From the NCBI GenBank assembly GCA_000004985.1, contig GG738937.1: a DNA stretch of 59,947 nt; one strand, written 5' to 3'. Below are positions 19,001-59,308 of this stretch, one piece after another. The notes under the pieces were generated by a model. It saw only the letters and a program-made list of their open reading frames with translations. It made no database searches and was not told where the DNA came from. The stretch comes from Naegleria gruberi (Eukaryota). Each line of letters opens with the position of its first letter. Positions within the stretch are counted from its first letter, which is position 1. The translations under genes and the position numbers were made by a program.

Positions 19001-19758
19001 NNNNNNNNNNNNNNNNNNNNNNNNNNNNNNNNNNNNNNNNNNNNNNNNNNNNNNNNNNNNNNNNNNNNNNNNNNNNNNNNNNNNNNNNNNNNNNNNNNNN
19101 NNNNNNNNNNNNNNNNNNNNNNNNNNNNNNNNNNNNNNNNNNNNNNNNNNNNNNNNNNNNNNNNNNNNNNNNNNNNNNNNNNNNNNNNNNNNNNNNNNNN
19201 NNNNNNNNNNNNNNNNNNNNNNNNNNNNNNNNNNNNNNNNNNNNNNNNNNNNNNNNNNNNNNNNNNNNNNNNNNNNNNNNNNNNNNNNNNNNNNNNNNNN
19301 NNNNNNNNNNNNNNNNNNNNNNNNNNNNNNNNNNNNNNNNNNNNNNNNNNNNNNNNNNNNNNNNNNNNNNNNNNNNNNNNNNNNNNNNNNNNNNNNNNNN
19401 NNNNNNNNNNNNNNNNNNNNNNNNNNNNNNNNNNNNNNNNNNNNNNNNNNNNNNNNNNNNNNNNNNNNNNNNNNNNNNNNNNNNNNNNNNNNNNNNNNNN
19501 NNNNNNNNNNNNNNNNNNNNNNNNNNNNNNNNNNNNNNNNNNNNNNNNNNNNNNNNNNNNNNNNNNNNNNNNNNNNNNNNNNNNNNNNNNNNNNNNNNNN
19601 NNNNNNNNNNNNNNNNNNNNNNNNNNNNNNNNNNNNNNNNNNNNNNNNNNNNNNNNNNNNNNNNNNNNNNNNNNNNNNNNNNNNNNNNNNNNNNNNNNNN
19701 NNNNNNNNNNNNNNNNNNNNNNNNNNNNNNNNNNNNNNNNNNNNNNNNNNNNNNNNNN

Positions 19759-31500: not shown

Positions 31501-34500
31501 NNNNNNNNNNNNNNNNNNNNNNNNNNNNNNNNNNNNNNNNNNNNNNNNNNNNNNNNNNNNNNNNNNNNNNNNNNNNNNNNNNNNNNNNNNNNNNNNNNNN
31601 NNNNNNNNNNNNNNNNNNNNNNNNNNNNNNNNNNNNNNNNNNNNNNNNNNNNNNNNNNNNNNNNNNNNNNNNNNNNNNNNNNNNNNNNNNNNNNNNNNNN
31701 NNNNNNNNNNNNNNNNNNNNNNNNNNNNNNNNNNNNNNNNNNNNNNNNNNNNNNNNNNNNNNNNNNNNNNNNNNNNNNNNNNNNNNNNNNNNNNNNNNNN
31801 NNNNNNNNNNNNNNNNNNNNNNNNNNNNNNNNNNNNNNNNNNNNNNNNNNNNNNNNNNNNNNNNNNNNNNNNNNNNNNNNNNNNNNNNNNNNNNNNNNNN
31901 NNNNNNNNNNNNNNNNNNNNNNNNNNNNNNNNNNNNNNNNNNNNNNNNNNNNNNNNNNNNNNNNNNNNNNNNNNNNNNNNNNNNNNNNNNNNNNNNNNNN
32001 NNNNNNNNNNNNNNNNNNNNNNNNNNNNNNNNNNNNNNNNNNNNNNNNNNNNNNNNNNNNNNNNNNNNNNNNNNNNNNNNNNNNNNNNNNNNNNNNNNNN
32101 NNNNNNNNNNNNNNNNNNNNNNNNNNNNNNNNNNNNNNNNNNNNNNNNNNNNNNNNNNNNNNNNNNNNNNNNNNNNNNNNNNNNNNNNNNNNNNNNNNNN
32201 NNNNNNNNNNNNNNNNNNNNNNNNNNNNNNNNNNNNNNNNNNNNNNNNNNNNNNNNNNNNNNNNNNNNNNNNNNNNNNNNNNNNNNNNNNNNNNNNNNNN
32301 NNNNNNNNNNNNNNNNNNNNNNNNNNNNNNNNNNNNNNNNNNNNNNNNNNNNNNNNNNNNNNNNNNNNNNNNNNNNNNNNNNNNNNNNNNNNNNNNNNNN
32401 NNNNNNNNNNNNNNNNNNNNNNNNNNNNNNNNNNNNNNNNNNNNNNNNNNNNNNNNNNNNNNNNNNNNNNNNNNNNNNNNNNNNNNNNNNNNNNNNNNNN
32501 NNNNNNNNNNNNNNNNNNNNNNNNNNNNNNNNNNNNNNNNNNNNNNNNNNNNNNNNNNNNNNNNNNNNNNNNNNNNNNNNNNNNNNNNNNNNNNNNNNNN
32601 NNNNNNNNNNNNNNNNNNNNNNNNNNNNNNNNNNNNNNNNNNNNNNNNNNNNNNNNNNNNNNNNNNNNNNNNNNNNNNNNNNNNNNNNNNNNNNNNNNNN
32701 NNNNNNNNNNNNNNNNNNNNNNNNNNNNNNNNNNNNNNNNNNNNNNNNNNNNNNNNNNNNNNNNNNNNNNNNNNNNNNNNNNNNNNNNNNNNNNNNNNNN
32801 NNNNNNNNNNNNNNNNNNNNNNNNNNNNNNNNNNNNNNNNNNNNNNNNNNNNNNNNNNNNNNNNNNNNNNNNNNNNNNNNNNNNNNNNNNNNNNNNNNNN
32901 NNNNNNNNNNNNNNNNNNNNNNNNNNNNNNNNNNNNNNNNNNNNNNNNNNNNNNNNNNNNNNNNNNNNNNNNNNNNNNNNNNNNNNNNNNNNNNNNNNNN
33001 NNNNNNNNNNNNNNNNNNNNNNNNNNNNNNNNNNNNNNNNNNNNNNNNNNNNNNNNNNNNNNNNNNNNNNNNNNNNNNNNNNNNNNNNNNNNNNNNNNNN
33101 NNNNNNNNNNNNNNNNNNNNNNNNNNNNNNNNNNNNNNNNNNNNNNNNNNNNNNNNNNNNNNNNNNNNNNNNNNNNNNNNNNNNNNNNNNNNNNNNNNNN
33201 NNNNNNNNNNNNNNNNNNNNNNNNNNNNNNNNNNNNNNNNNNNNNNNNNNNNNNNNNNNNNNNNNNNNNNNNNNNNNNNNNNNNNNNNNNNNNNNNNNNN
33301 NNNNNNNNNNNNNNNNNNNNNNNNNNNNNNNNNNNNNNNNNNNNNNNNNNNNNNNNNNNNNNNNNNNNNNNNNNNNNNNNNNNNNNNNNNNNNNNNNNNN
33401 NNNNNNNNNNNNNNNNNNNNNNNNNNNNNNNNNNNNNNNNNNNNNNNNNNNNNNNNNNNNNNNNNNNNNNNNNNNNNNNNNNNNNNNNNNNNNNNNNNNN
33501 NNNNNNNNNNNNNNNNNNNNNNNNNNNNNNNNNNNNNNNNNNNNNNNNNNNNNNNNNNNNNNNNNNNNNNNNNNNNNNNNNNNNNNNNNNNNNNNNNNNN
33601 NNNNNNNNNNNNNNNNNNNNNNNNNNNNNNNNNNNNNNNNNNNNNNNNNNNNNNNNNNNNNNNNNNNNNNNNNNNNNNNNNNNNNNNNNNNNNNNNNNNN
33701 NNNNNNNNNNNNNNNNNNNNNNNNNNNNNNNNNNNNNNNNNNNNNNNNNNNNNNNNNNNNNNNNNNNNNNNNNNNNNNNNNNNNNNNNNNNNNNNNNNNN
33801 NNNNNNNNNNNNNNNNNNNNNNNNNNNNNNNNNNNNNNNNNNNNNNNNNNNNNNNNNNNNNNNNNNNNNNNNNNNNNNNNNNNNNNNNNNNNNNNNNNNN
33901 NNNNNNNNNNNNNNNNNNNNNNNNNNNNNNNNNNNNNNNNNNNNNNNNNNNNNNNNNNNNNNNNNNNNNNNNNNNNNNNNNNNNNNNNNNNNNNNNNNNN
34001 NNNNNNNNNNNNNNNNNNNNNNNNNNNNNNNNNNNNNNNNNNNNNNNNNNNNNNNNNNNNNNNNNNNNNNNNNNNNNNNNNNNNNNNNNNNNNNNNNNNN
34101 NNNNNNNNNNNNNNNNNNNNNNNNNNNNNNNNNNNNNNNNNNNNNNNNNNNNNNNNNNNNNNNNNNNNNNNNNNNNNNNNNNNNNNNNNNNNNNNNNNNN
34201 NNNNNNNNNNNNNNNNNNNNNNNNNNNNNNNNNNNNNNNNNNNNNNNNNNNNNNNNNNNNNNNNNNNNNNNNNNNNNNNNNNNNNNNNNNNNNNNNNNNN
34301 NNNNNNNNNNNNNNNNNNNNNNNNNNNNNNNNNNNNNNNNNNNNNNNNNNNNNNNNNNNNNNNNNNNNNNNNNNNNNNNNNNNNNNNNNNNNNNNNNNNN
34401 NNNNNNNNNNNNNNNNNNNNNNNNNNNNNNNNNNNNNNNNNNNNNNNNNNNNNNNNNNNNNNNNNNNNNNNNNNNNNNNNNNNNNNNNNNNNNNNNNNNN

Positions 34501-37500
34501 NNNNNNNNNNNNNNNNNNNNNNNNNNNNNNNNNNNNNNNNNNNNNNNNNNNNNNNNNNNNNNNNNNNNNNNNNNNNNNNNNNNNNNNNNNNNNNNNNNNN
34601 NNNNNNNNNNNNNNNNNNNNNNNNNNNNNNNNNNNNNNNNNNNNNNNNNNNNNNNNNNNNNNNNNNNNNNNNNNNNNNNNNNNNNNNNNNNNNNNNNNNN
34701 NNNNNNNNNNNNNNNNNNNNNNNNNNNNNNNNNNNNNNNNNNNNNNNNNNNNNNNNNNNNNNNNNNNNNNNNNNNNNNNNNNNNNNNNNNNNNNNNNNNN
34801 NNNNNNNNNNNNNNNNNNNNNNNNNNNNNNNNNNNNNNNNNNNNNNNNNNNNNNNNNNNNNNNNNNNNNNNNNNNNNNNNNNNNNNNNNNNNNNNNNNNN
34901 NNNNNNNNNNNNNNNNNNNNNNNNNNNNNNNNNNNNNNNNNNNNNNNNNNNNNNNNNNNNNNNNNNNNNNNNNNNNNNNNNNNNNNNNNNNNNNNNNNNN
35001 NNNNNNNNNNNNNNNNNNNNNNNNNNNNNNNNNNNNNNNNNNNNNNNNNNNNNNNNNNNNNNNNNNNNNNNNNNNNNNNNNNNNNNNNNNNNNNNNNNNN
35101 NNNNNNNNNNNNNNNNNNNNNNNNNNNNNNNNNNNNNNNNNNNNNNNNNNNNNNNNNNNNNNNNNNNNNNNNNNNNNNNNNNNNNNNNNNNNNNNNNNNN
35201 NNNNNNNNNNNNNNNNNNNNNNNNNNNNNNNNNNNNNNNNNNNNNNNNNNNNNNNNNNNNNNNNNNNNNNNNNNNNNNNNNNNNNNNNNNNNNNNNNNNN
35301 NNNNNNNNNNNNNNNNNNNNNNNNNNNNNNNNNNNNNNNNNNNNNNNNNNNNNNNNNNNNNNNNNNNNNNNNNNNNNNNNNNNNNNNNNNNNNNNNNNNN
35401 NNNNNNNNNNNNNNNNNNNNNNNNNNNNNNNNNNNNNNNNNNNNNNNNNNNNNNNNNNNNNNNNNNNNNNNNNNNNNNNNNNNNNNNNNNNNNNNNNNNN
35501 NNNNNNNNNNNNNNNNNNNNNNNNNNNNNNNNNNNNNNNNNNNNNNNNNNNNNNNNNNNNNNNNNNNNNNNNNNNNNNNNNNNNNNNNNNNNNNNNNNNN
35601 NNNNNNNNNNNNNNNNNNNNNNNNNNNNNNNNNNNNNNNNNNNNNNNNNNNNNNNNNNNNNNNNNNNNNNNNNNNNNNNNNNNNNNNNNNNNNNNNNNNN
35701 NNNNNNNNNNNNNNNNNNNNNNNNNNNNNNNNNNNNNNNNNNNNNNNNNNNNNNNNNNNNNNNNNNNNNNNNNNNNNNNNNNNNNNNNNNNNNNNNNNNN
35801 NNNNNNNNNNNNNNNNNNNNNNNNNNNNNNNNNNNNNNNNNNNNNNNNNNNNNNNNNNNNNNNNNNNNNNNNNNNNNNNNNNNNNNNNNNNNNNNNNNNN
35901 NNNNNNNNNNNNNNNNNNNNNNNNNNNNNNNNNNNNNNNNNNNNNNNNNNNNNNNNNNNNNNNNNNNNNNNNNNNNNNNNNNNNNNNNNNNNNNNNNNNN
36001 NNNNNNNNNNNNNNNNNNNNNNNNNNNNNNNNNNNNNNNNNNNNNNNNNNNNNNNNNNNNNNNNNNNNNNNNNNNNNNNNNNNNNNNNNNNNNNNNNNNN
36101 NNNNNNNNNNNNNNNNNNNNNNNNNNNNNNNNNNNNNNNNNNNNNNNNNNNNNNNNNNNNNNNNNNNNNNNNNNNNNNNNNNNNNNNNNNNNNNNNNNNN
36201 NNNNNNNNNNNNNNNNNNNNNNNNNNNNNNNNNNNNNNNNNNNNNNNNNNNNNNNNNNNNNNNNNNNNNNNNNNNNNNNNNNNNNNNNNNNNNNNNNNNN
36301 NNNNNNNNNNNNNNNNNNNNNNNNNNNNNNNNNNNNNNNNNNNNNNNNNNNNNNNNNNNNNNNNNNNNNNNNNNNNNNNNNNNNNNNNNNNNNNNNNNNN
36401 NNNNNNNNNNNNNNNNNNNNNNNNNNNNNNNNNNNNNNNNNNNNNNNNNNNNNNNNNNNNNNNNNNNNNNNNNNNNNNNNNNNNNNNNNNNNNNNNNNNN
36501 NNNNNNNNNNNNNNNNNNNNNNNNNNNNNNNNNNNNNNNNNNNNNNNNNNNNNNNNNNNNNNNNNNNNNNNNNNNNNNNNNNNNNNNNNNNNNNNNNNNN
36601 NNNNNNNNNNNNNNNNNNNNNNNNNNNNNNNNNNNNNNNNNNNNNNNNNNNNNNNNNNNNNNNNNNNNNNNNNNNNNNNNNNNNNNNNNNNNNNNNNNNN
36701 NNNNNNNNNNNNNNNNNNNNNNNNNNNNNNNNNNNNNNNNNNNNNNNNNNNNNNNNNNNNNNNNNNNNNNNNNNNNNNNNNNNNNNNNNNNNNNNNNNNN
36801 NNNNNNNNNNNNNNNNNNNNNNNNNNNNNNNNNNNNNNNNNNNNNNNNNNNNNNNNNNNNNNNNNNNNNNNNNNNNNNNNNNNNNNNNNNNNNNNNNNNN
36901 NNNNNNNNNNNNNNNNNNNNNNNNNNNNNNNNNNNNNNNNNNNNNNNNNNNNNNNNNNNNNNNNNNNNNNNNNNNNNNNNNNNNNNNNNNNNNNNNNNNN
37001 NNNNNNNNNNNNNNNNNNNNNNNNNNNNNNNNNNNNNNNNNNNNNNNNNNNNNNNNNNNNNNNNNNNNNNNNNNNNNNNNNNNNNNNNNNNNNNNNNNNN
37101 NNNNNNNNNNNNNNNNNNNNNNNNNNNNNNNNNNNNNNNNNNNNNNNNNNNNNNNNNNNNNNNNNNNNNNNNNNNNNNNNNNNNNNNNNNNNNNNNNNNN
37201 NNNNNNNNNNNNNNNNNNNNNNNNNNNNNNNNNNNNNNNNNNNNNNNNNNNNNNNNNNNNNNNNNNNNNNNNNNNNNNNNNNNNNNNNNNNNNNNNNNNN
37301 NNNNNNNNNNNNNNNNNNNNNNNNNNNNNNNNNNNNNNNNNNNNNNNNNNNNNNNNNNNNNNNNNNNNNNNNNNNNNNNNNNNNNNNNNNNNNNNNNNNN
37401 NNNNNNNNNNNNNNNNNNNNNNNNNNNNNNNNNNNNNNNNNNNNNNNNNNNNNNNNNNNNNNNNNNNNNNNNNNNNNNNNNNNNNNNNNNNNNNNNNNNN

Positions 37501-39655
37501 NNNNNNNNNNNNNNNNNNNNNNNNNNNNNNNNNNNNNNNNNNNNNNNNNNNNNNNNNNNNNNNNNNNNNNNNNNNNNNNNNNNNNNNNNNNNNNNNNNNN
37601 NNNNNNNNNNNNNNNNNNNNNNNNNNNNNNNNNNNNNNNNNNNNNNNNNNNNNNNNNNNNNNNNNNNNNNNNNNNNNNNNNNNNNNNNNNNNNNNNNNNN
37701 NNNNNNNNNNNNNNNNNNNNNNNNNNNNNNNNNNNNNNNNNNNNNNNNNNNNNNNNNNNNNNNNNNNNNNNNNNNNNNNNNNNNNNNNNNNNNNNNNNNN
37801 NNNNNNNNNNNNNNNNNNNNNNNNNNNNNNNNNNNNNNNNNNNNNNNNNNNNNNNNNNNNNNNNNNNNNNNNNNNNNNNNNNNNNNNNNNNNNNNNNNNN
37901 NNNNNNNNNNNNNNNNNNNNNNNNNNNNNNNNNNNNNNNNNNNNNNNNNNNNNNNNNNNNNNNNNNNNNNNNNNNNNNNNNNNNNNNNNNNNNNNNNNNN
38001 NNNNNNNNNNNNNNNNNNNNNNNNNNNNNNNNNNNNNNNNNNNNNNNNNNNNNNNNNNNNNNNNNNNNNNNNNNNNNNNNNNNNNNNNNNNNNNNNNNNN
38101 NNNNNNNNNNNNNNNNNNNNNNNNNNNNNNNNNNNNNNNNNNNNNNNNNNNNNNNNNNNNNNNNNNNNNNNNNNNNNNNNNNNNNNNNNNNNNNNNNNNN
38201 NNNNNNNNNNNNNNNNNNNNNNNNNNNNNNNNNNNNNNNNNNNNNNNNNNNNNNNNNNNNNNNNNNNNNNNNNNNNNNNNNNNNNNNNNNNNNNNNNNNN
38301 NNNNNNNNNNNNNNNNNNNNNNNNNNNNNNNNNNNNNNNNNNNNNNNNNNNNNNNNNNNNNNNNNNNNNNNNNNNNNNNNNNNNNNNNNNNNNNNNNNNN
38401 NNNNNNNNNNNNNNNNNNNNNNNNNNNNNNNNNNNNNNNNNNNNNNNNNNNNNNNNNNNNNNNNNNNNNNNNNNNNNNNNNNNNNNNNNNNNNNNNNNNN
38501 NNNNNNNNNNNNNNNNNNNNNNNNNNNNNNNNNNNNNNNNNNNNNNNNNNNNNNNNNNNNNNNNNNNNNNNNNNNNNNNNNNNNNNNNNNNNNNNNNNNN
38601 NNNNNNNNNNNNNNNNNNNNNNNNNNNNNNNNNNNNNNNNNNNNNNNNNNNNNNNNNNNNNNNNNNNNNNNNNNNNNNNNNNNNNNNNNNNNNNNNNNNN
38701 NNNNNNNNNNNNNNNNNNNNNNNNNNNNNNNNNNNNNNNNNNNNNNNNNNNNNNNNNNNNNNNNNNNNNNNNNNNNNNNNNNNNNNNNNNNNNNNNNNNN
38801 NNNNNNNNNNNNNNNNNNNNNNNNNNNNNNNNNNNNNNNNNNNNNNNNNNNNNNNNNNNNNNNNNNNNNNNNNNNNNNNNNNNNNNNNNNNNNNNNNNNN
38901 NNNNNNNNNNNNNNNNNNNNNNNNNNNNNNNNNNNNNNNNNNNNNNNNNNNNNNNNNNNNNNNNNNNNNNNNNNNNNNNNNNNNNNNNNNNNNNNNNNNN
39001 NNNNNNNNNNNNNNNNNNNNNNNNNNNNNNNNNNNNNNNNNNNNNNNNNNNNNNNNNNNNNNNNNNNNNNNNNNNNNNNNNNNNNNNNNNNNNNNNNNNN
39101 NNNNNNNNNNNNNNNNNNNNNNNNNNNNNNNNNNNNNNNNNNNNNNNNNNNNNNNNNNNNNNNNNNNNNNNNNNNNNNNNNNNNNNNNNNNNNNNNNNNN
39201 NNNNNNNNNNNNNNNNNNNNNNNNNNNNNNNNNNNNNNNNNNNNNNNNNNNNNNNNNNNNNNNNNNNNNNNNNNNNNNNNNNNNNNNNNNNNNNNNNNNN
39301 NNNNNNNNNNNNNNNNNNNNNNNNNNNNNNNNNNNNNNNNNNNNNNNNNNNNNNNNNNNNNNNNNNNNNNNNNNNNNNNNNNNNNNNNNNNNNNNNNNNN
39401 NNNNNNNNNNNNNNNNNNNNNNNNNNNNNNNNNNNNNNNNNNNNNNNNNNNNNNNNNNNNNNNNNNNNNNNNNNNNNNNNNNNNNNNNNNNNNNNNNNNN
39501 NNNNNNNNNNNNNNNNNNNNNNNNNNNNNNNNNNNNNNNNNNNNNNNNNNNNNNNNNNNNNNNNNNNNNNNNNNNNNNNNNNNNNNNNNNNNNNNNNNNN
39601 NNNNNNNNNNNNNNNNNNNNNNNNNNNNNNNNNNNNNNNNNNNNNNNNNNNNNNN

Positions 39656-41105: not shown

Positions 41106-42634
41106 ATTGAGGCTTTGCTCATAATTTAATTTGGAAAGTATACTTTAAATTACACGNNNNNNNNNNNNNNNNNNNNNNNNNNNNNNNNNNNNNNNNNNNN
41201 NNNNNNNNNNNNNNNNNNNNNNNNNNNNNNNNNNNNNNNNNNNNNNNNNNNNNNNNNNNNNNNNNNNNNNNNNNNNNNNNNNNNNNNNNNNNNNNNNNNN
41301 NNNNNNNNNNNNNNNNNNNNNNNNNNNNNNNNNNNNNNNNNNNNNNNNNNNNNNNNNNNNNNNNNNNNNNNNNNNNNNNNNNNNNNNNNNNNNNNNNNNN
41401 NNNNNNNNNNNNNNNNNNNNNNNNNNNNNNNNNNNNNNNNNNNNNNNNNNNNNNNNNNNNNNNNNNNNNNNNNNNNNNNNNNNNNNNNNNNNNNNNNNNN
41501 NNNNNNNNNNNNNNNNNNNNNNNNNNNNNNNNNNNNNNNNNNNNNNNNNNNNNNNNNNNNNNNNNNNNNNNNNNNNNNNNNNNNNNNNNNNNNNNNNNNN
41601 NNNNNNNNNNNNNNNNNNNNNNNNNNNNNNNNNNNNNNNNNNNNNNNNNNNNNNNNNNNNNNNNNNNNNNNNNNNNNNNNNNNNNNNNNNNNNNNNNNNN
41701 NNNNNNNNNNNNNNNNNNNNNNNNNNNNNNNNNNNNNNNNNNNNNNNNNNNNNNNNNNNNNNNNNNNNNNNNNNNNNNNNNNNNNNNNNNNNNNNNNNNN
41801 NNNNNNNNNNNNNNNNNNNNNNNNNNNNNNNNNNNNNNNNNNNNNNNNNNNNNNNNNNNNNNNNNNNNNNNNNNNNNNNNNNNNNNNNNNNNNNNNNNNN
41901 NNNNNNNNNNNNNNNNNNNNNNNNNNNNNNNNNNNNNNNNNNNNNNNNNNNNNNNNNNNNNNNNNNNNNNNNNNNNNNNNNNNNNNNNNNNNNNNNNNNN
42001 NNNNNNNNNNNNNNNNNNNNNNNNNNNNNNNNNNNNNNNNNNNNNNNNNNNNNNNNNNNNNNNNNNNNNNNNNNNNNNNNNNNNNNNNNNNNNNNNNNNN
42101 NNNNNNNNNNNNNNNNNNNNNNNNNNNNNNNNNNNNNNNNNNNNNNNNNNNNNNNNNNNNNNNNNNNNNNNNNNNNNNNNNNNNNNNNNNNNNNNNNNNN
42201 NNNNNNNNNNNNNNNNNNNNNNNNNNNNNNNNNNNNNNNNNNNNNNNNNNNNNNNNNNNNNNNNNNNNNNNNNNNNNNNNNNNNNNNNNNNNNNNNNNNN
42301 NNNNNNNNNNNNNNNNNNNNNNNNNNNNNNNNNNNNNNNNNNNNNNNNNNNNNNNNNNNNNNNNNNNNNNNNNNNNNNNNNNNNNNNNNNNNNNNNNNNN
42401 NNNNNNNNNNNNNNNNNNNNNNNNNNNNNNNNNNNNNNNNNNNNNNNNNNNNNNNNNNNNNNNNNNNNNNNNNNNNNNNNNNNNNNNNNNNNNNNNNNNN
42501 NNNNNNNNNNNNNNNNNNNNNNNNNNNNNNAATGGATTGAAAGGAGAAACTATATATTCAAACTTGCAACATTTTCATGGACTTACCTCAGGATCACAGT
42601 GCTTGTTCATCAGAATATTTTTGAGGTTATGGAT

Positions 42635-43691: not shown

Positions 43692-44721
43692 NNNNNNNNN
43701 NNNNNNNNNNNNNNNNNNNNNNNNNNNNNNNNNNNNNNNNNNNNNNNNNNNNNNNNNNNNNNNNNNNNNNNNNNNNNNNNNNNNNNNNNNNNNNNNNNNN
43801 NNNNNNNNNNNNNNNNNNNNNNNNNNNNNNNNNNNNNNNNNNNNNNNNNNNNNNNNNNNNNNNNNNNNNNNNNNNNNNNNNNNNNNNNNNNNNNNNNNNN
43901 NNNNNNNNNNNNNNNNNNNNNNNNNNNNNNNNNNNNNNNNNNNNNNNNNNNNNNNNNNNNNNNNNNNNNNNNNNNNNNNNNNNNNNNNNNNNNNNNNNNN
44001 NNNNNNNNNNNNNNNNNNNNNNNNNNNNNNNNNNNNNNNNNNNNNNNNNNNNNNNNNNNNNNNNNNNNNNNNNNNNNNNNNNNNNNNNNNNNNNNNNNNN
44101 NNNNNNNNNNNNNNNNNNNNNNNNNNNNNNNNNNNNNNNNNNNNNNNNNNNNNNNNNNNNNNNNNNNNNNNNNNNNNNNNNNNNNNNNNNNNNNNNNNNN
44201 NNNNNNNNNNNNNNNNNNNNNNNNNNNNNNNNNNNNNNNNNNNNNNNNNNNNNNNNNNNNNNNNNNNNNNNNNNNNNNNNNNNNNNNNNNNNNNNNNNNN
44301 NNNNNNNNNNNNNNNNNNNNNNNNNNNNNNNNNNNNNNNNNNNNNNNNNNNNNNNNNNNNNNNNNNNNNNNNNNNNNNNNNNNNNNNNNNNNNNNNNNNN
44401 NNNNNNNNNNNNNNNNNNNNNNNNNNNNNNNNNNNNNNNNNNNNNNNNNNNNNNNNNNNNNNNNNNNNNNNNNNNNNNNNNNNNNNNNNNNNNNNNNNNN
44501 NNNNNNNNNNNNNNNNNNNNNNNNNNNNNNNNNNNNNNNNNNNNNNNNNNNNNNNNNNNNNNNNNNNNNNNNNNNNNNNNNNNNNNNNNNNNNNNNNNNN
44601 NNNNNNNNNNNNNNNNNNNNNNNNNNNNNNNNNNNNNNNNNNNNNNNNNNNNNNNNNNNNNNNNNNNNNNNNNNNNNNNNNNNCCAATTTTGAAAGTATG
44701 ATGGTTTTGTTGGTATTTCAG

Positions 44722-45676
44722 TGCTCGTCTTGATAGTAAGGGAAATTATTTCGCTACCATTCTTTTGAGTGGTGACGATTCCTTAATTGTCAGAGTTGAC
44801 CTTTCCAATAGAATCGGCCAAGTTTCGCATTTTGAAAGAACAAACATTTATACTTCAGTTTTAGCTGAAACTCAAAATTTTTACATTATTGGAACTTCTC
44901 CTCCTTCCATTCTTGGTTTAGATGCCACTACTCTCCAATTGAAGTGGACTGCAAACGTTACTGGAAGTGAAATGATTTTGGTCAACTCTGCAAATAGCAA
45001 GGATGATGTCATTTATGCAGCTGATTACAACATTTTGCACAAAATTCGTGTAAACGATGGTCGGATCATATCTTCATTCAAATTCCCACATGATATTGAT
45101 AATATCGCATATGTGAGTGGTGTGAATGGATGGGTTTCGGTTACTTTAGCAAACGATACTTCTATTTCTGTATCTTTCCTTAATATTGAAAACCAAATTG
45201 AAACAAGACTTGAAGTGATGAGTACTAGACATATGCCACATGTTGATTCTAATTCAGCTTGTTCTTATCCAATTGCTACTGCCAATCAAACTGGAAATAT
45301 TTTGGAAATTACGTCAATTGTCAAGTGTGAAATTACTTCAGGTTTTGGAGGCTCAGAAAAGATTATTGCAGTCAAATCCAGATTTGATAAAAATTCCTTA
45401 AAGCCATTGCCAAACGAACCAAACTTGATTTGGTCAACTGACACTTCTGCCCTCGTAATTGCCCAAATTGACTCCAAGACCATTCTATCAATGGAATATT
45501 CAGCAGAAAACAGCATTTATATTCAATACGATATTTCCACTGGTAAGATCATCAAAACATCTCCCTCTCGCATTTCAAGTGGTTATGGTTTCCCATATCT
45601 CGTAACAAGTTCCAACAATAAGGTCTATAGATATGAATTGACTCCACATATTGATGTTGAATCAGCTGATTTGTAA
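44722..45676 (+). CDS. Downstream exon of a gene, probably the same gene as 43102. Beta-rich, Ser/Thr/Asn-rich region of about 318 aa, stop at 45674-45676
   Basis: The frame opens at the acceptor GGTATTTCAG at 44719-44721 with no ATG; the track's start is a TTG. It encodes ...ARLDSKGNYFATILLSGDDSLIVRVDLSNRIGQ...YRYELTPHIDVESADL. Propeller-like composition. Homology not recognised. Confidence 0.45.
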
Positions 45677-45777
45677 AAGAATGGAAAGAATGGAATAAAA
45701 AGTGTTGGATTTATGGAATTCCTCCTTCATACTTCTTTCAATCATTACAATAATTGTTTTATCCGTATCGTACATTA

Positions 45778-45800
45778 CAGTCACGTCTCGAATAATGCGG
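45778..45800 (+). repeat. Left terminal inverted repeat of the MITE
   Basis: cagtcacgtctcgaataatgcgg; exact reverse complement at 46270-46292. Confidence 0.8.
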
Positions 45801-46269
45801 AGTCAGTCGATTTTTAAAACACTCCGAATTATTTGCATCCATTTTGTAATGAATTGATATGTTTTATGCATAAATCCTAACTTTTGATAATCTTGACAGC
45901 CATAAAGATGCCCAAAGAATGCAGCTAATGTAAATGTGACTTGTCATTCAACAGATCCTTCCAATGTAAGCTAAGAGATTTGCAAGCCGAATGGTATGAT
46001 GAGCAAGCAGAAATTATCATCAACAATAAGAAGAAGGTAAACACATTCCCAAAAGTCTCAACACAGCAACTAATTAACTGGACATCAATGGCATTAACTT
46101 CAGTAGAAGATAGAACAATTGTGAGTGGGTTCAAACAGGATTAGGCCTTGCAAAGGACGGTAGTGAAGATGATGAAGTGCTTTAGAAGAAGCATGCTGAA
46201 GAATAACACTCCGAATTATTTTTGTTGTTGCAATTTTTTTTTGAAAATCGACCTCCGAATTAATAAAAA

Positions 46270-46292
46270 CCGCATTATTCGAGACGTGACTG
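46270..46292 (-). repeat. Right terminal inverted repeat of the MITE
   Basis: ccgcattattcgagacgtgactg, followed by the TA duplication at 46293-46294. Confidence 0.8.
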
Positions 46293-46513
46293 TACCAAAA
46301 TACCATTGTAACTACAAGTCACATTCCAATTCGAAAATTTAATTCCCAATAATTCAATAGAATGACGCTTCTGGTGCTTTGAAGCTTAAATTTATACTGA
46401 TAGTTGATGCCATGAAAATTGGAAAGCACTTGTTTAAAGGATGTTGAGAGAAAACTCACAATCAGCATGAAGCTGGGCAAGACCAGTCTAAAAAATAGAA
46501 TTACACACACAAT

Positions 46514-47036
46514 ATGGGGCAAACACTTGCATACCCTGTCATGATCCAGACCATCCTTGATGGATGCAATTTTCTCTCAACATCCTTTAAACAAGTTGAT
46601 TTAAAGAAAACCTTCTTGGAATATGGTGAACAATGTAATGCCTTGAGTATTTTTGTAAAGGAAGCTAACAAACACATTTCAGAATTTTCTCCAACACTTA
46701 AAGAGAGATATAAATCGTTAAAGGTCAAACTCTATGAAGAATGTATGAAATTGACTAATTTGAATACCACATTCCGAACAACATTGAATTTGATGAAAAA
46801 AGAATTAGAATATTTTAGAGTTCTTGCGAAAACAGACGAAACTGCATTATTATTCACAAACAAAATCGCTTCACACGAAACAACTTTTAATGAAATGGCT
46901 AAAAGTTTTGAAAAGTACAAGGATGATTTAGGAACAATGGGCAGTGAATGTGTTGACATTGCCCAACAGATAGATAACGAAATACCAAAAGAGAAATTTG
47001 TAAAGCTCGTGCTTGGACAATTGTTGGCATAATTAC
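46514..47036 (+). CDS. Hypothetical protein starting MGQTLAYP..., N-terminal part; continues into the gap
   Basis: ATG at 46514. Gly2 gives a possible N-myristoylation context. Coiled-coil-like Lys/Glu-rich sequence. Open to the gap edge. Confidence 0.45.
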
Positions 47037-49448
47037 NNNNNNNNNNNNNNNNNNNNNNNNNNNNNNNNNNNNNNNNNNNNNNNNNNNNNNNNNNNNNNNN
47101 NNNNNNNNNNNNNNNNNNNNNNNNNNNNNNNNNNNNNNNNNNNNNNNNNNNNNNNNNNNNNNNNNNNNNNNNNNNNNNNNNNNNNNNNNNNNNNNNNNNN
47201 NNNNNNNNNNNNNNNNNNNNNNNNNNNNNNNNNNNNNNNNNNNNNNNNNNNNNNNNNNNNNNNNNNNNNNNNNNNNNNNNNNNNNNNNNNNNNNNNNNNN
47301 NNNNNNNNNNNNNNNNNNNNNNNNNNNNNNNNNNNNNNNNNNNNNNNNNNNNNNNNNNNNNNNNNNNNNNNNNNNNNNNNNNNNNNNNNNNNNNNNNNNN
47401 NNNNNNNNNNNNNNNNNNNNNNNNNNNNNNNNNNNNNNNNNNNNNNNNNNNNNNNNNNNNNNNNNNNNNNNNNNNNNNNNNNNNNNNNNNNNNNNNNNNN
47501 NNNNNNNNNNNNNNNNNNNNNNNNNNNNNNNNNNNNNNNNNNNNNNNNNNNNNNNNNNNNNNNNNNNNNNNNNNNNNNNNNNNNNNNNNNNNNNNNNNNN
47601 NNNNNNNNNNNNNNNNNNNNNNNNNNNNNNNNNNNNNNNNNNNNNNNNNNNNNNNNNNNNNNNNNNNNNNNNNNNNNNNNNNNNNNNNNNNNNNNNNNNN
47701 NNNNNNNNNNNNNNNNNNNNNNNNNNNNNNNNNNNNNNNNNNNNNNNNNNNNNNNNNNNNNNNNNNNNNNNNNNNNNNNNNNNNNNNNNNNNNNNNNNNN
47801 NNNNNNNNNNNNNNNNNNNNNNNNNNNNNNNNNNNNNNNNNNNNNNNNNNNNNNNNNNNNNNNNNNNNNNNNNNNNNNNNNNNNNNNNNNNNNNNNNNNN
47901 NNNNNNNNNNNNNNNNNNNNNNNNNNNNNNNNNNNNNNNNNNNNNNNNNNNNNNNNNNNNNNNNNNNNNNNNNNNNNNNNNNNNNNNNNNNNNNNNNNNN
48001 NNNNNNNNNNNNNNNNNNNNNNNNNNNNNNNNNNNNNNNNNNNNNNNNNNNNNNNNNNNNNNNNNNNNNNNNNNNNNNNNNNNNNNNNNNNNNNNNNNNN
48101 NNNNNNNNNNNNNNNNNNNNNNNNNNNNNNNNNNNNNNNNNNNNNNNNNNNNNNNNNNNNNNNNNNNNNNNNNNNNNNNNNNNNNNNNNNNNNNNNNNNN
48201 NNNNNNNNNNNNNNNNNNNNNNNNNNNNNNNNNNNNNNNNNNNNNNNNNNNNNNNNNNNNNNNNNNNNNNNNNNNNNNNNNNNNNNNNNNNNNNNNNNNN
48301 NNNNNNNNNNNNNNNNNNNNNNNNNNNNNNNNNNNNNNNNNNNNNNNNNNNNNNNNNNNNNNNNNNNNNNNNNNNNNNNNNNNNNNNNNNNNNNNNNNNN
48401 NNNNNNNNNNNNNNNNNNNNNNNNNNNNNNNNNNNNNNNNNNNNNNNNNNNNNNNNNNNNNNNNNNNNNNNNNNNNNNNNNNNNNNNNNNNNNNNNNNNN
48501 NNNNNNNNNNNNNNNNNNNNNNNNNNNNNNNNNNNNNNNNNNNNNNNNNNNNNNNNNNNNNNNNNNNNNNNNNNNNNNNNNNNNNNNNNNNNNNNNNNNN
48601 NNNNNNNNNNNNNNNNNNNNNNNNNNNNNNNNNNNNNNNNNNNNNNNNNNNNNNNNNNNNNNNNNNNNNNNNNNNNNNNNNNNNNNNNNNNNNNNNNNNN
48701 NNNNNNNNNNNNNNNNNNNNNNNNNNNNNNNNNNNNNNNNNNNNNNNNNNNNNNNNNNNNNNNNNNNNNNNNNNNNNNNNNNNNNNNNNNNNNNNNNNNN
48801 NNNNNNNNNNNNNNNNNNNNNNNNNNNNNNNNNNNNNNNNNNNNNNNNNNNNNNNNNNNNNNNNNNNNNNNNNNNNNNNNNNNNNNNNNNNNNNNNNNNN
48901 NNNNNNNNNNNNNNNNNNNNNNNNNNNNNNNNNNNNNNNNNNNNNNNNNNNNNNNNNNNNNNNNNNNNNNNNNNNNNNNNNNNNNNNNNNNNNNNNNNNN
49001 NNNNNNNNNNNNNNNNNNNNNNNNNNNNNNNNNNNNNNNNNNNNNNNNNNNNNNNNNNNNNNNNNNNNNNNNNNNNNNNNNNNNNNNNNNNNNNNNNNNN
49101 NNNNNNNNNNNNNNNNNNNNNNNNNNNNNNNNNNNNNNNNNNNNNNNNNNNNNNNNNNNNNNNNNNNNNNNNNNNNNNNNNNNNNNNNNNNNNNNNNNNN
49201 NNNNNNNNNNNNNNNNNNNNNNNNNNNNNNNNNNNNNNNNNNNNNNNNNNNNNNNNNNNNNNNNNNNNNNNNNNNNNNNNNNNNNNNNNNNNNNNNNNNN
49301 NNNNNNNNNNNNNNNNNNNNNNNNNNNNNNNNNNNNNNNNNNNNNNNNNNNNNNNNNNNNNNNNNNNNNNNNNNNNNNNNNNNNNNNNNNNNNNNNNNNN
49401 NNNNNNNNNNNNNNNNNNNNNNNNNNNNNNNNNNNNNNNNNNNNNNNN

Positions 49449-50895: not shown

Positions 50896-51415
50896 NNNNN
50901 NNNNNNNNNNNNNNNNNNNNNNNNNNNNNNNNNNNNNNNNNNNNNNNNNNNNNNNNNNNNNNNNNNNNNNNNNNNNNNNNNNNNNNNNNNNNNNNNNNNN
51001 NNNNNNNNNNNNNNNNNNNNNNNNNNNNNNNNNNNNNNNNNNNNNNNNNNNNNNNNNNNNNNNNNNNNNNNNNNNNNNNNNNNNNNNNNNNNNNNNNNNN
51101 NNNNNNNNNNNNNNNNNNNNNNNNNNNNNNNNNNNNNNNNNNNNNNNNNNNNNNNNNNNNNNNNNNNNNNNNNNNNNNNNNNNNNNNNNNNNNNNNNNNN
51201 NNNNNNNNNNNNNNNNNNNNNNNNNNNNNNNNNNNNNNNNNNNNNNNNNNNNNNNNNNNNNNNNNNNNNNNNNNNNNNNNNNNNNNNNNNNNNNNNNNNN
51301 NNNNNNNNNNNNNNNNNNNNNNNNNNNNNNNNNNNNNNNNNNNNNNNNNNNNNNNNNNNNNNNNNNNNNNNNNNNNNNNNNNNNNNNNNNNNNNNNNNNN
51401 NNNNNNNNNNNNNNN

Positions 51416-53856: not shown

Positions 53857-56800
53857 NNNNNNNNNNNNNNNNNNNNNNNNNNNNNNNNNNNNNNNNNNNN
53901 NNNNNNNNNNNNNNNNNNNNNNNNNNNNNNNNNNNNNNNNNNNNNNNNNNNNNNNNNNNNNNNNNNNNNNNNNNNNNNNNNNNNNNNNNNNNNNNNNNNN
54001 NNNNNNNNNNNNNNNNNNNNNNNNNNNNNNNNNNNNNNNNNNNNNNNNNNNNNNNNNNNNNNNNNNNNNNNNNNNNNNNNNNNNNNNNNNNNNNNNNNNN
54101 NNNNNNNNNNNNNNNNNNNNNNNNNNNNNNNNNNNNNNNNNNNNNNNNNNNNNNNNNNNNNNNNNNNNNNNNNNNNNNNNNNNNNNNNNNNNNNNNNNNN
54201 NNNNNNNNNNNNNNNNNNNNNNNNNNNNNNNNNNNNNNNNNNNNNNNNNNNNNNNNNNNNNNNNNNNNNNNNNNNNNNNNNNNNNNNNNNNNNNNNNNNN
54301 NNNNNNNNNNNNNNNNNNNNNNNNNNNNNNNNNNNNNNNNNNNNNNNNNNNNNNNNNNNNNNNNNNNNNNNNNNNNNNNNNNNNNNNNNNNNNNNNNNNN
54401 NNNNNNNNNNNNNNNNNNNNNNNNNNNNNNNNNNNNNNNNNNNNNNNNNNNNNNNNNNNNNNNNNNNNNNNNNNNNNNNNNNNNNNNNNNNNNNNNNNNN
54501 NNNNNNNNNNNNNNNNNNNNNNNNNNNNNNNNNNNNNNNNNNNNNNNNNNNNNNNNNNNNNNNNNNNNNNNNNNNNNNNNNNNNNNNNNNNNNNNNNNNN
54601 NNNNNNNNNNNNNNNNNNNNNNNNNNNNNNNNNNNNNNNNNNNNNNNNNNNNNNNNNNNNNNNNNNNNNNNNNNNNNNNNNNNNNNNNNNNNNNNNNNNN
54701 NNNNNNNNNNNNNNNNNNNNNNNNNNNNNNNNNNNNNNNNNNNNNNNNNNNNNNNNNNNNNNNNNNNNNNNNNNNNNNNNNNNNNNNNNNNNNNNNNNNN
54801 NNNNNNNNNNNNNNNNNNNNNNNNNNNNNNNNNNNNNNNNNNNNNNNNNNNNNNNNNNNNNNNNNNNNNNNNNNNNNNNNNNNNNNNNNNNNNNNNNNNN
54901 NNNNNNNNNNNNNNNNNNNNNNNNNNNNNNNNNNNNNNNNNNNNNNNNNNNNNNNNNNNNNNNNNNNNNNNNNNNNNNNNNNNNNNNNNNNNNNNNNNNN
55001 NNNNNNNNNNNNNNNNNNNNNNNNNNNNNNNNNNNNNNNNNNNNNNNNNNNNNNNNNNNNNNNNNNNNNNNNNNNNNNNNNNNNNNNNNNNNNNNNNNNN
55101 NNNNNNNNNNNNNNNNNNNNNNNNNNNNNNNNNNNNNNNNNNNNNNNNNNNNNNNNNNNNNNNNNNNNNNNNNNNNNNNNNNNNNNNNNNNNNNNNNNNN
55201 NNNNNNNNNNNNNNNNNNNNNNNNNNNNNNNNNNNNNNNNNNNNNNNNNNNNNNNNNNNNNNNNNNNNNNNNNNNNNNNNNNNNNNNNNNNNNNNNNNNN
55301 NNNNNNNNNNNNNNNNNNNNNNNNNNNNNNNNNNNNNNNNNNNNNNNNNNNNNNNNNNNNNNNNNNNNNNNNNNNNNNNNNNNNNNNNNNNNNNNNNNNN
55401 NNNNNNNNNNNNNNNNNNNNNNNNNNNNNNNNNNNNNNNNNNNNNNNNNNNNNNNNNNNNNNNNNNNNNNNNNNNNNNNNNNNNNNNNNNNNNNNNNNNN
55501 NNNNNNNNNNNNNNNNNNNNNNNNNNNNNNNNNNNNNNNNNNNNNNNNNNNNNNNNNNNNNNNNNNNNNNNNNNNNNNNNNNNNNNNNNNNNNNNNNNNN
55601 NNNNNNNNNNNNNNNNNNNNNNNNNNNNNNNNNNNNNNNNNNNNNNNNNNNNNNNNNNNNNNNNNNNNNNNNNNNNNNNNNNNNNNNNNNNNNNNNNNNN
55701 NNNNNNNNNNNNNNNNNNNNNNNNNNNNNNNNNNNNNNNNNNNNNNNNNNNNNNNNNNNNNNNNNNNNNNNNNNNNNNNNNNNNNNNNNNNNNNNNNNNN
55801 NNNNNNNNNNNNNNNNNNNNNNNNNNNNNNNNNNNNNNNNNNNNNNNNNNNNNNNNNNNNNNNNNNNNNNNNNNNNNNNNNNNNNNNNNNNNNNNNNNNN
55901 NNNNNNNNNNNNNNNNNNNNNNNNNNNNNNNNNNNNNNNNNNNNNNNNNNNNNNNNNNNNNNNNNNNNNNNNNNNNNNNNNNNNNNNNNNNNNNNNNNNN
56001 NNNNNNNNNNNNNNNNNNNNNNNNNNNNNNNNNNNNNNNNNNNNNNNNNNNNNNNNNNNNNNNNNNNNNNNNNNNNNNNNNNNNNNNNNNNNNNNNNNNN
56101 NNNNNNNNNNNNNNNNNNNNNNNNNNNNNNNNNNNNNNNNNNNNNNNNNNNNNNNNNNNNNNNNNNNNNNNNNNNNNNNNNNNNNNNNNNNNNNNNNNNN
56201 NNNNNNNNNNNNNNNNNNNNNNNNNNNNNNNNNNNNNNNNNNNNNNNNNNNNNNNNNNNNNNNNNNNNNNNNNNNNNNNNNNNNNNNNNNNNNNNNNNNN
56301 NNNNNNNNNNNNNNNNNNNNNNNNNNNNNNNNNNNNNNNNNNNNNNNNNNNNNNNNNNNNNNNNNNNNNNNNNNNNNNNNNNNNNNNNNNNNNNNNNNNN
56401 NNNNNNNNNNNNNNNNNNNNNNNNNNNNNNNNNNNNNNNNNNNNNNNNNNNNNNNNNNNNNNNNNNNNNNNNNNNNNNNNNNNNNNNNNNNNNNNNNNNN
56501 NNNNNNNNNNNNNNNNNNNNNNNNNNNNNNNNNNNNNNNNNNNNNNNNNNNNNNNNNNNNNNNNNNNNNNNNNNNNNNNNNNNNNNNNNNNNNNNNNNNN
56601 NNNNNNNNNNNNNNNNNNNNNNNNNNNNNNNNNNNNNNNNNNNNNNNNNNNNNNNNNNNNNNNNNNNNNNNNNNNNNNNNNNNNNNNNNNNNNNNNNNNN
56701 NNNNNNNNNNNNNNNNNNNNNNNNNNNNNNNNNNNNNNNNNNNNNNNNNNNNNNNNNNNNNNNNNNNNNNNNNNNNNNNNNNNNNNNNNNNNNNNNNNNN

Positions 56801-59308
56801 NNNNNNNNNNNNNNNNNNNNNNNNNNNNNNNNNNNNNNNNNNNNNNNNNNNNNNNNNNNNNNNNNNNNNNNNNNNNNNNNNNNNNNNNNNNNNNNNNNNN
56901 NNNNNNNNNNNNNNNNNNNNNNNNNNNNNNNNNNNNNNNNNNNNNNNNNNNNNNNNNNNNNNNNNNNNNNNNNNNNNNNNNNNNNNNNNNNNNNNNNNNN
57001 NNNNNNNNNNNNNNNNNNNNNNNNNNNNNNNNNNNNNNNNNNNNNNNNNNNNNNNNNNNNNNNNNNNNNNNNNNNNNNNNNNNNNNNNNNNNNNNNNNNN
57101 NNNNNNNNNNNNNNNNNNNNNNNNNNNNNNNNNNNNNNNNNNNNNNNNNNNNNNNNNNNNNNNNNNNNNNNNNNNNNNNNNNNNNNNNNNNNNNNNNNNN
57201 NNNNNNNNNNNNNNNNNNNNNNNNNNNNNNNNNNNNNNNNNNNNNNNNNNNNNNNNNNNNNNNNNNNNNNNNNNNNNNNNNNNNNNNNNNNNNNNNNNNN
57301 NNNNNNNNNNNNNNNNNNNNNNNNNNNNNNNNNNNNNNNNNNNNNNNNNNNNNNNNNNNNNNNNNNNNNNNNNNNNNNNNNNNNNNNNNNNNNNNNNNNN
57401 NNNNNNNNNNNNNNNNNNNNNNNNNNNNNNNNNNNNNNNNNNNNNNNNNNNNNNNNNNNNNNNNNNNNNNNNNNNNNNNNNNNNNNNNNNNNNNNNNNNN
57501 NNNNNNNNNNNNNNNNNNNNNNNNNNNNNNNNNNNNNNNNNNNNNNNNNNNNNNNNNNNNNNNNNNNNNNNNNNNNNNNNNNNNNNNNNNNNNNNNNNNN
57601 NNNNNNNNNNNNNNNNNNNNNNNNNNNNNNNNNNNNNNNNNNNNNNNNNNNNNNNNNNNNNNNNNNNNNNNNNNNNNNNNNNNNNNNNNNNNNNNNNNNN
57701 NNNNNNNNNNNNNNNNNNNNNNNNNNNNNNNNNNNNNNNNNNNNNNNNNNNNNNNNNNNNNNNNNNNNNNNNNNNNNNNNNNNNNNNNNNNNNNNNNNNN
57801 NNNNNNNNNNNNNNNNNNNNNNNNNNNNNNNNNNNNNNNNNNNNNNNNNNNNNNNNNNNNNNNNNNNNNNNNNNNNNNNNNNNNNNNNNNNNNNNNNNNN
57901 NNNNNNNNNNNNNNNNNNNNNNNNNNNNNNNNNNNNNNNNNNNNNNNNNNNNNNNNNNNNNNNNNNNNNNNNNNNNNNNNNNNNNNNNNNNNNNNNNNNN
58001 NNNNNNNNNNNNNNNNNNNNNNNNNNNNNNNNNNNNNNNNNNNNNNNNNNNNNNNNNNNNNNNNNNNNNNNNNNNNNNNNNNNNNNNNNNNNNNNNNNNN
58101 NNNNNNNNNNNNNNNNNNNNNNNNNNNNNNNNNNNNNNNNNNNNNNNNNNNNNNNNNNNNNNNNNNNNNNNNNNNNNNNNNNNNNNNNNNNNNNNNNNNN
58201 NNNNNNNNNNNNNNNNNNNNNNNNNNNNNNNNNNNNNNNNNNNNNNNNNNNNNNNNNNNNNNNNNNNNNNNNNNNNNNNNNNNNNNNNNNNNNNNNNNNN
58301 NNNNNNNNNNNNNNNNNNNNNNNNNNNNNNNNNNNNNNNNNNNNNNNNNNNNNNNNNNNNNNNNNNNNNNNNNNNNNNNNNNNNNNNNNNNNNNNNNNNN
58401 NNNNNNNNNNNNNNNNNNNNNNNNNNNNNNNNNNNNNNNNNNNNNNNNNNNNNNNNNNNNNNNNNNNNNNNNNNNNNNNNNNNNNNNNNNNNNNNNNNNN
58501 NNNNNNNNNNNNNNNNNNNNNNNNNNNNNNNNNNNNNNNNNNNNNNNNNNNNNNNNNNNNNNNNNNNNNNNNNNNNNNNNNNNNNNNNNNNNNNNNNNNN
58601 NNNNNNNNNNNNNNNNNNNNNNNNNNNNNNNNNNNNNNNNNNNNNNNNNNNNNNNNNNNNNNNNNNNNNNNNNNNNNNNNNNNNNNNNNNNNNNNNNNNN
58701 NNNNNNNNNNNNNNNNNNNNNNNNNNNNNNNNNNNNNNNNNNNNNNNNNNNNNNNNNNNNNNNNNNNNNNNNNNNNNNNNNNNNNNNNNNNNNNNNNNNN
58801 NNNNNNNNNNNNNNNNNNNNNNNNNNNNNNNNNNNNNNNNNNNNNNNNNNNNNTCGAAAGATGTCGAAATGATTGTAATATTTACATTTGGCAATGACAC
58901 ACAATTGGATTTGAGTTTGTTTCTTTGTCTGTATGACATCAATCAACCAATTGATGAAACATTTGAAGGGGTGATGTATTATTGTTTAATTCTATTAATC
59001 CAAAAGATTATACGAAGGGTTATTCGAAACGAACTACATTGAATATTTGGGGAATATAATAGTTTGGAGGTATTAGTTGAAGTAAACGTTGCTTGTAATA
59101 ATTAGAGATAGATAAAAACGTCTTTCACTTGTTGTACTACTTTGACATATCTCGGATTCAAGCTCCTTTTACTAAAACATCAAATGTCTTGTTATCTTTG
59201 CATAAACTTGATTAATTTATCAAATATTGACATACTAACAATAATTCATCTATTTTCACACATCTTGATTACATTCGAAACTTGAAAATACGAAACTTTA
59301 CAAAAAAA

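Follow-up and report, generated by a model that had tools for sequence, protein, structure and literature searches.

Transposons of the Tc1/mariner and pogo groups have given rise to MITEs, among them the Stowaway-like elements and the human MER2-group elements derived from Tigger, and classic MITEs are defined by the presence of tens to thousands of near-identical copies. The pogo superfamily of IS630-Tc1-mariner transposons comprises the pogo, Tigger, Fot1/Fot-like, Passer, Lemi and Mover elements, and the joint presence of the PF03184 and PF03221 domains is the hallmark of their transposases (Gao et al. 2020, PMC7386202; Dupeyron et al. 2020, PMC7325037). Fot-like pogo elements have been reported from one excavate species (Gao et al., PMC7386202), and the part of the supplements to that study that was available does not name Naegleria. 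The published repeat content of Naegleria gruberi is 5.1 %, with DNA transposons accounting for 1.25 % of Naegleria lovaniensis (PMC6125883) and transposable elements for 0.28 % of N. gruberi (bioRxiv 10.64898/2026.06.24.734286). Our literature search returned no paper describing the pogo-type family discussed here in Naegleria.

We examined a short inverted-repeat element in N. gruberi NEG-M. The window, by which we mean the whole stretch of DNA that was analysed, is a complete scaffold of 59,947 bp, of which ~57 % consists of runs of N (1215-2607, 5915-7770, 16162-19758, 22800-39655, 41157-42530, 43692-44683, 47037-49448, 50896-51415 and 53857-58853). The readable part (25.9 kb) is AT-rich (33 % G+C) and intron-poor, and its predicted products include PPR, DUF4116, kinase, Ras and NHL-like proteins. 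This content had raised the idea of a giant virus as the source of the window, which was discarded when window proteins proved to match EFC36146, EFC36157 and EFC36154 of N. gruberi exactly. Our analysis indicates that the feature at 45776-46294 is very probably a non-autonomous, internally deleted copy of a ~1.47-kb pogo-type DNA transposon (DDE_1; IS630-Tc1-mariner) in the nuclear genome of this species.

Ends, subterminal motifs and position of the element

The element lies in an intergenic spacer of 837 bp that extends from the stop of the upstream ORF (45676) to the start of the downstream plus-strand ORF (46514). It starts 100 bp past the upstream stop codon and ends 220 bp before the next ORF, both genes being on the same strand, and it reads TA-CAGTCACGTCTCGAATAATGCGG ... 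CCGCATTATTCGAGACGTGACTG-TA, with a length of 515 bp, or 519 bp including both TAs. The terminal inverted repeats (TIRs) are perfect over 23/23 bases, with CAGTCACGTCTCGAATAATGCGG at 45778-45800 on the plus strand and its exact reverse complement at 46270-46292. The initial annotation had recorded the perfect 23-bp TIRs, the TA flanks, the 515-bp length and the 837-bp spacer between plus-strand genes, all correctly. A repeat finder reported a 100 % complementary inverted repeat with 469 nt between its arms; these arms are 25 nt long rather than 23 because the flanking TA is self-complementary. Searching with up to 3 mismatches detected only these two TIR sites within the window, and 100 dinucleotide-preserving shuffles contained no TIR matches. 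Judging by the behaviour of the family, the flanking TAs would represent a target-site duplication, and an empty site would be expected to carry a single TA (...CGTACATTACCAAAATACC...).

A 13-bp motif from the inner TIR, AATAATGCGGAGT, recurs at fixed places in this element and in its relatives. The layout consists of one copy at positions 14-26 on the plus strand, an inverted copy at 44-56, and right-end copies ~82-94, 30-42 and 14-26 bp from the terminus. All five copies are present in the window element and in a full-length relative (L003), and four, at equivalent positions, in two others (L002 and L006). Additional direct and inverted repeats detected within the element (D1, which includes copy 2, and I4) are due to these motif copies. 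By analogy with other Tc1/mariner/pogo elements, the motifs are probably transposase-binding sites. The features of the element are as follows.

45776..45777, no strand: left flanking TA, presumed target-site duplication; TA is found on both sides in all related full-length elements too
45778..45800, plus: left TIR, CAGTCACGTCTCGAATAATGCGG; first 26 bases 22/26 identical to the left end of full-length element L002
45791..45803, plus: motif copy 1, AATAATGCGGAGT, which overlaps the inner TIR (element positions 14-26) and is found at this position in L002, L003 and L006 too
45821..45833, minus: motif copy 2, AATAATTCGGAGT, inverted; element positions 44-56; identical position in L003 and L006, 46-58 in L002
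45833..46206, plus: pseudogenised C-terminal third of a pogo-type DDE_1 transposase, approximately residues 270-413 of P0011, from phmmer, tblastn, stitched alignment and blastn
45941..46144, plus: 67-codon open stretch, the best-kept part of the remnant; 59-64 % identical to P0010, P0011 and P0012
46208..46220, minus: motif copy 3; element positions 431-443, directly past the ancestral stop; equivalent in L003 at 1382-1394, directly past the transposase stop
46252..46264, minus: motif copy 4, with 3 mismatches; element positions 475-487; equivalent in L003 at 1434-1446
46267..46279, minus: motif copy 5, overlapping the inner right TIR
46270..46292, minus: right TIR, exact reverse complement of the left, from the repeat finder and the mismatch search
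46293..46294, no strand: right flanking TA, read from the sequence

The gene just upstream of the element encodes a protein of 505 aa (P0008), and its gene model bridges a run of N, which is thus a real assembly gap. Over its C-terminal 300 residues, this protein is identical to a twin, EFC45707 (P0014; NAEGRDRAFT_66484), whose gene lies on a scaffold of 502,116 bp in the same assembly. Several window genes have identical or near-identical twins on that larger scaffold (EFC45617, EFC45618, EFC45622 and EFC45707), and these twin genes make it probable that the window scaffold is a redundant haplotig or that the corresponding region was assembled twice.

Transposase remnant and extent of the internal deletion

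No intact transposase is present within the element, whose longest open stretches reach 67-69 codons. A phmmer search with the 67-codon open stretch at 45941-46144 against 1.84 billion representative proteins gave exactly two matches: a 90-aa fragment (P0010; 63 % identity over residues 2-69, E = 8.1e-20) and a 413-aa protein (P0011; 59 % identity over residues 323-390, E = 2.9e-18). The 67-aa remnant, which by itself is too short, matched no Pfam family, and a word-indexed protein search with a hand-stitched remnant of 85 aa returned no match. With tblastn, similarity reached well past the open stretch and into other frames on both sides, with LTFDNLDSH upstream in a different frame (90-100 % identical to P0011, P0012 and P0013) and GLGLAKDGSEDDEV downstream in the third frame. 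A stitched conceptual translation, in which the frameshifts were placed by hand, aligns from LIPFL (~residue 270) through the C-terminus, and the remnant therefore spans ~45833-46206 and is a pseudogene. The motifs FDNLDSH and CDLSFNRSF can be recognized in it, as can the GLGLAKDGSEDD tail, and a 37-bp deletion, stop codons and frameshifts disrupt it; the reading frame changes at least three times, and two in-frame stops, assigned by eye, stand where the relatives have Q and W. The initial annotation had proposed that a 60-codon remnant weakly resembles a transposase C-terminus; the resemblance to this part of the protein holds, but it is strong rather than weak and extends over more than 60 codons. 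Likewise, the element cannot encode a transposase, as had been stated, only the broken C-terminal third being left.

The extent of the loss can be gauged by comparison with L003. Three segments of the window element align to this relative by blastn: positions 1-51 with 2-52 of L003 (71 % identity), 97-127 with 991-1021 (90 %) and 137-519 with 1086-1480 (66 %), and in the protein alignment the coding similarity begins as early as element position ~56. From the DNA and protein alignments together, the window element corresponds to ~57 bp from the start of a full-length element joined to ~460 bp from its end. The deletion between them removed about 900 bp, and its junction lies at ~45834, at the 5′ edge of the remnant and right after motif copy 2. 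The deleted stretch held the 5′ UTR, the HTH DNA-binding domains and the candidate first catalytic Asp. With the start and end of the full-length relatives kept and the middle gone, the earlier interpretation of the locus, that a cut-and-paste element flanked by TA gave rise to it by deletion, is borne out, the derivation being reconstructed from cousins (the nearest full-length transposases are 56-63 % identical) and not from the actual progenitor.

Full-length relatives and placement among pogo-type transposons

P0011, which is encoded in assembly GCA_050043615.1, matched the Pfam domain DDE_1 at 63.5 bits (cut-off 22) over residues 200-388, covering the region homologous to the remnant. Its scores fell below the cut-off for DDE_3, the Tc1-type domain (15.7 bits; cut-off 28.6), and for HTH_Tnp_Tc5 (PF03221; 17.6 bits, cut-off 22.2), and a PDB sequence search with this protein gave no match. 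Only two relatives of P0011 were detected in a collection of 5.8 billion proteins. These are P0012 (409 aa, 63 % identical to P0011), from metagenome and read-archive assemblies, and P0013 (420 aa, 56 % identical to P0011), from N. lovaniensis, where it bears the source name HTH CENPB-type domain-containing. Both carry precomputed PF03184 and PF03221 assignments, the latter being marked weak on the fetched loci. Candidate catalytic motifs, placed by motif resemblance only, are NYDET, FDNLDSH and MCDL, which would correspond to D169/D286/D324 and a DD37D arrangement in P0011, P0012 and P0013; the second and third of these motifs are still legible in the window remnant.

The genes for these three transposases each lie within a unit of 1455-1475 bp that has ends of the form TA|CAGT...ACTG|TA and TIRs of 21-28 bp. 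In all five related full-length elements (L002-L006), TA is present on both sides in differing contexts. The left ends compare as follows.

Window element: CAGTCACGTCTCGAATAATGCGGAGT
L002: CAGTCCCGTCTCGAATACAACGGAGT (closest TIR, 22/26 identical to the window)
L003: CAGTCTCCCCTTGAATACAACGGAGT
L006 (N. lovaniensis): CAGTAGTTCCTCGATTAGAGCGGAGC

A 1475-bp element encoding an identical 409-aa P0012 was found in three flanking contexts (L003, 4-1478; L004, 173-1647; L005, 76-1550) and in mutually unrelated datasets (ENA ERZ27315067, Logan SRR636569 and JGI 3300002220, the last being the source of L005). This indicates that the family transposes somewhere. Judged by its sequence, the P0012 element is seemingly intact and a candidate active element, whose host is possibly a heterolobosean.

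These comparisons place the window element within a known superfamily and refine the label of Tc1/mariner-type that it had been given. This label is correct at the level of the IS630-Tc1-mariner superfamily, but the branch is pogo, as DDE_1 is matched at 63.5 bits versus 15.7 for DDE_3, and not Tc1/mariner proper. As in the pogo superfamily (PMC7386202, PMC7325037), the family has TA flanks and TIRs of no more than 40 bp ('type 1') that open with CAGT; its full-length members encode a single transposase of 409-420 aa with DDE_1 plus a candidate HTH_Tnp_Tc5 domain (marked weak in P0012 and P0013, sub-threshold in P0011), and their length of ~1.47 kb falls inside the reported range of 1.2-5.2 kb. 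The candidate D2-D3 spacing of 37, for residues assigned by motif only, lies within DD29-56D, yet does not coincide with the named common classes DD30D, DD35D and DD36D, and the window copy differs from these transposons in having lost two thirds of the transposase gene. The TA target, the short CAGT-type TIRs and a cut-and-paste mode are shared with Tc1/mariner proper, and the label fits the 'Tc1-Mariner' superfamily of Wicker. In contrast to Tc1/mariner proper, which is characterized by DD34E/DD34D and DDE_3/Transposase_1, P0011 falls below the DDE_3 cut-off, the candidate third residue is D and the spacing is 37, not 34.

The window element also resembles the MITEs derived from Tc1/mariner and pogo transposons in being short (below ~800 bp) and non-coding, in retaining the TIRs and TA that mark its parent family, and in its origin by internal deletion. 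Unlike classic MITEs, it is documented by one copy and its ortholog, and recognizable coding sequence is still present. The term deletion derivative suits it better than that of a classic MITE.

Age of the insertion and alternative explanations

A homologue of the upstream gene product (P0009, 99 % identical) is encoded on a 6.2-kb contig, L001, from an N. gruberi-like source (ENA assembly ERZ929261). This contig is co-linear with the window, with 94.6-99.6 % identity per aligned block. As the only other version of the locus retrieved, L001 provides no empty site; it is occupied by the same element at the same TA, and the left TIR is identical. The two copies differ in length only, with no point differences inside the element. 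L001 keeps 37 bp of coding sequence (...LLKVKVKMPLPKNA...) that are missing from the window, lacks ~16 bp inside the remnant, and lacks a further 65 bp (window 46226-46290), a loss that took away the right TIR together with the fourth and fifth motif copies. As the same insertion occupies the same site in both lineages, it is older than their split, and the different secondary deletions indicate that each copy has decayed independently. The initial annotation had taken the perfect TIRs and intact TA flanks as a sign that the family was recently mobile. This proposal does not follow from the evidence, since the occupied site is shared, the remnant has several frameshifts and stops, and the relatives are only 56-63 % identical in protein; with an insertion both shared and decayed, the perfect TIRs are no sign of recent movement and have simply not yet been hit in the window lineage.

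Outside the element, the window and L001 differ by a 21-bp indel (45747-45767), a 2-bp indel (46307-46308) and a replaced 27-nt patch. The patch forms part of a perfect 27-nt inverted repeat in the window (46428-46454 and 46570-46596), whose 115-nt loop holds the downstream ATG (46514) and whose right arm lies inside that ORF; folded as RNA, it gives -61 kcal/mol (z = -6.3). The right arm is present in L001 and the left arm is swapped for ~32 nt of unrelated sequence, which points to a templated inverted patch in one haplotype, arising through template-switch repair or as an assembly artefact. The sole Rfam match in 45500-46800 was a far-sub-threshold miRNA precursor on this hairpin, next to the element. 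In the wider comparison, 6-7 indel or complex events separate window 45700-46460 from L001 5190-5880, with one point difference (46380 T/G) in 1.1 kb, an excess of indels over substitutions.

The window copy is best read, from the sequence comparisons, as a fossil passed on by descent and not as a new insertion, because the same site is occupied in L001 with different deletions and the N. gruberi proteins yielded no intact transposase compatible with it. Following what is known of Tc1/mariner/pogo transposition, a transposase supplied in trans would have bound the repeated 13-bp motifs and paired the ends before excising the element and inserting it at a TA, with duplication of this dinucleotide. 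The window copy would now be movable only where a compatible transposase is present.

An alternative is that the element belongs to an amplified, homogeneous MITE family that is now, or was very recently, mobilized in N. gruberi by an autonomous pogo-like partner. This explanation, which we regard as unlikely, would account for the perfect TIRs and for all five presumed binding motifs being intact; the related full-length element is clearly mobile elsewhere, as attested by its three contexts, and the differences between the window and L001, which are almost exclusively deletions and include the loss of a TIR, could be scars of transposase breaks. It is opposed by the insertion at the same site in the second lineage, by the very low transposable-element content published for Naegleria (PMC6125883; bioRxiv 10.64898/2026.06.24.734286) and by the outcome of searches for further copies and for a partner. 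Within the 25.9 kb of readable window, there is one copy only, with no second copy or other transposase remnant. No N. gruberi protein appeared among the relatives of the remnant (1.84 billion proteins) or of P0011 (5.8 billion), although repeat masking before annotation could hide one, and an exact look-up of the small ORFs of the element in the protein collection, as a proxy for copy number, found none present. No autonomous partner with matching TIRs was found among the relatives retrieved. P0011 had no match in viral contigs, and the exact 23-bp TIR is absent from the viral and metagenome contig collections searched. A degenerate TIR, CAGTCNCNNCTNGAATANNNCGGAGT, was likewise without a match in prokaryotic genome contigs and viral contigs. 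In metagenome contigs, its single match (L007) was rejected as due to chance, since TA and a partner arm are missing there and the content is unrelated. L005 (JGI 3300002220) holds an exact match to the degenerate TIR, yet was missing from the results of the metagenome scan; that collection is thus incomplete for JGI data and the TIR negatives are weak. Overall, the shared occupied site, the heavy decay of the coding sequence and the lack of a partner among the proteins lean against recent activity.

A related and improbable proposition is that the 6-7 deletion or complex events, with their TIR loss and microhomology-flanked internal deletions, are abortive-excision scars of a pogo-like transposase that is still active in the N. 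gruberi lineage. If this were true, an element with five intact motifs would constitute a mobilizable endogenous vector backbone for an organism that is poor in genetic tools.

More doubtful still is the idea that the inherited copy has been co-opted and now supplies 3′-UTR, terminator or promoter sequence. Its place between two same-strand genes and its retention in two lineages are in keeping with such a role, but the deletions of 37, 16 and 65 bp that separate the lineages inside the element are the opposite of what purifying selection would produce, and Rfam detected no RNA family match in the element. Finally, the view that the structure is unrelated to transposons and is either an inverted repeat peculiar to this locus or an error of assembly, for which only the lack of further copies in the window could be cited, is effectively refuted. 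Five full-length elements of other genomes share homologous TIRs, flanking TAs, the layout of the motifs and the coding sequence of the remnant, and the same structure was independently assembled in L001.

The deletion derivative described here is an ordinary genomic fossil that matters little beyond annotation and challenges no current understanding. Its diagnostic deletions distinguish the two versions of the locus and can serve as a haplotype or strain marker. The analysis documents a Naegleria pogo-type family of ~1.47 kb that is flanked by TA, ends in CAGT-type TIRs and bears four to five copies of a 13-bp motif at fixed positions, and shows that N. gruberi harbours at least one decayed deletion derivative of this family. 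This description may be used for repeat annotation of Naegleria genomes, in which transposable-element content is low and poorly classified, and, should P0012 or another intact transposase turn out to be active, would provide a start for a Naegleria transposon tool.
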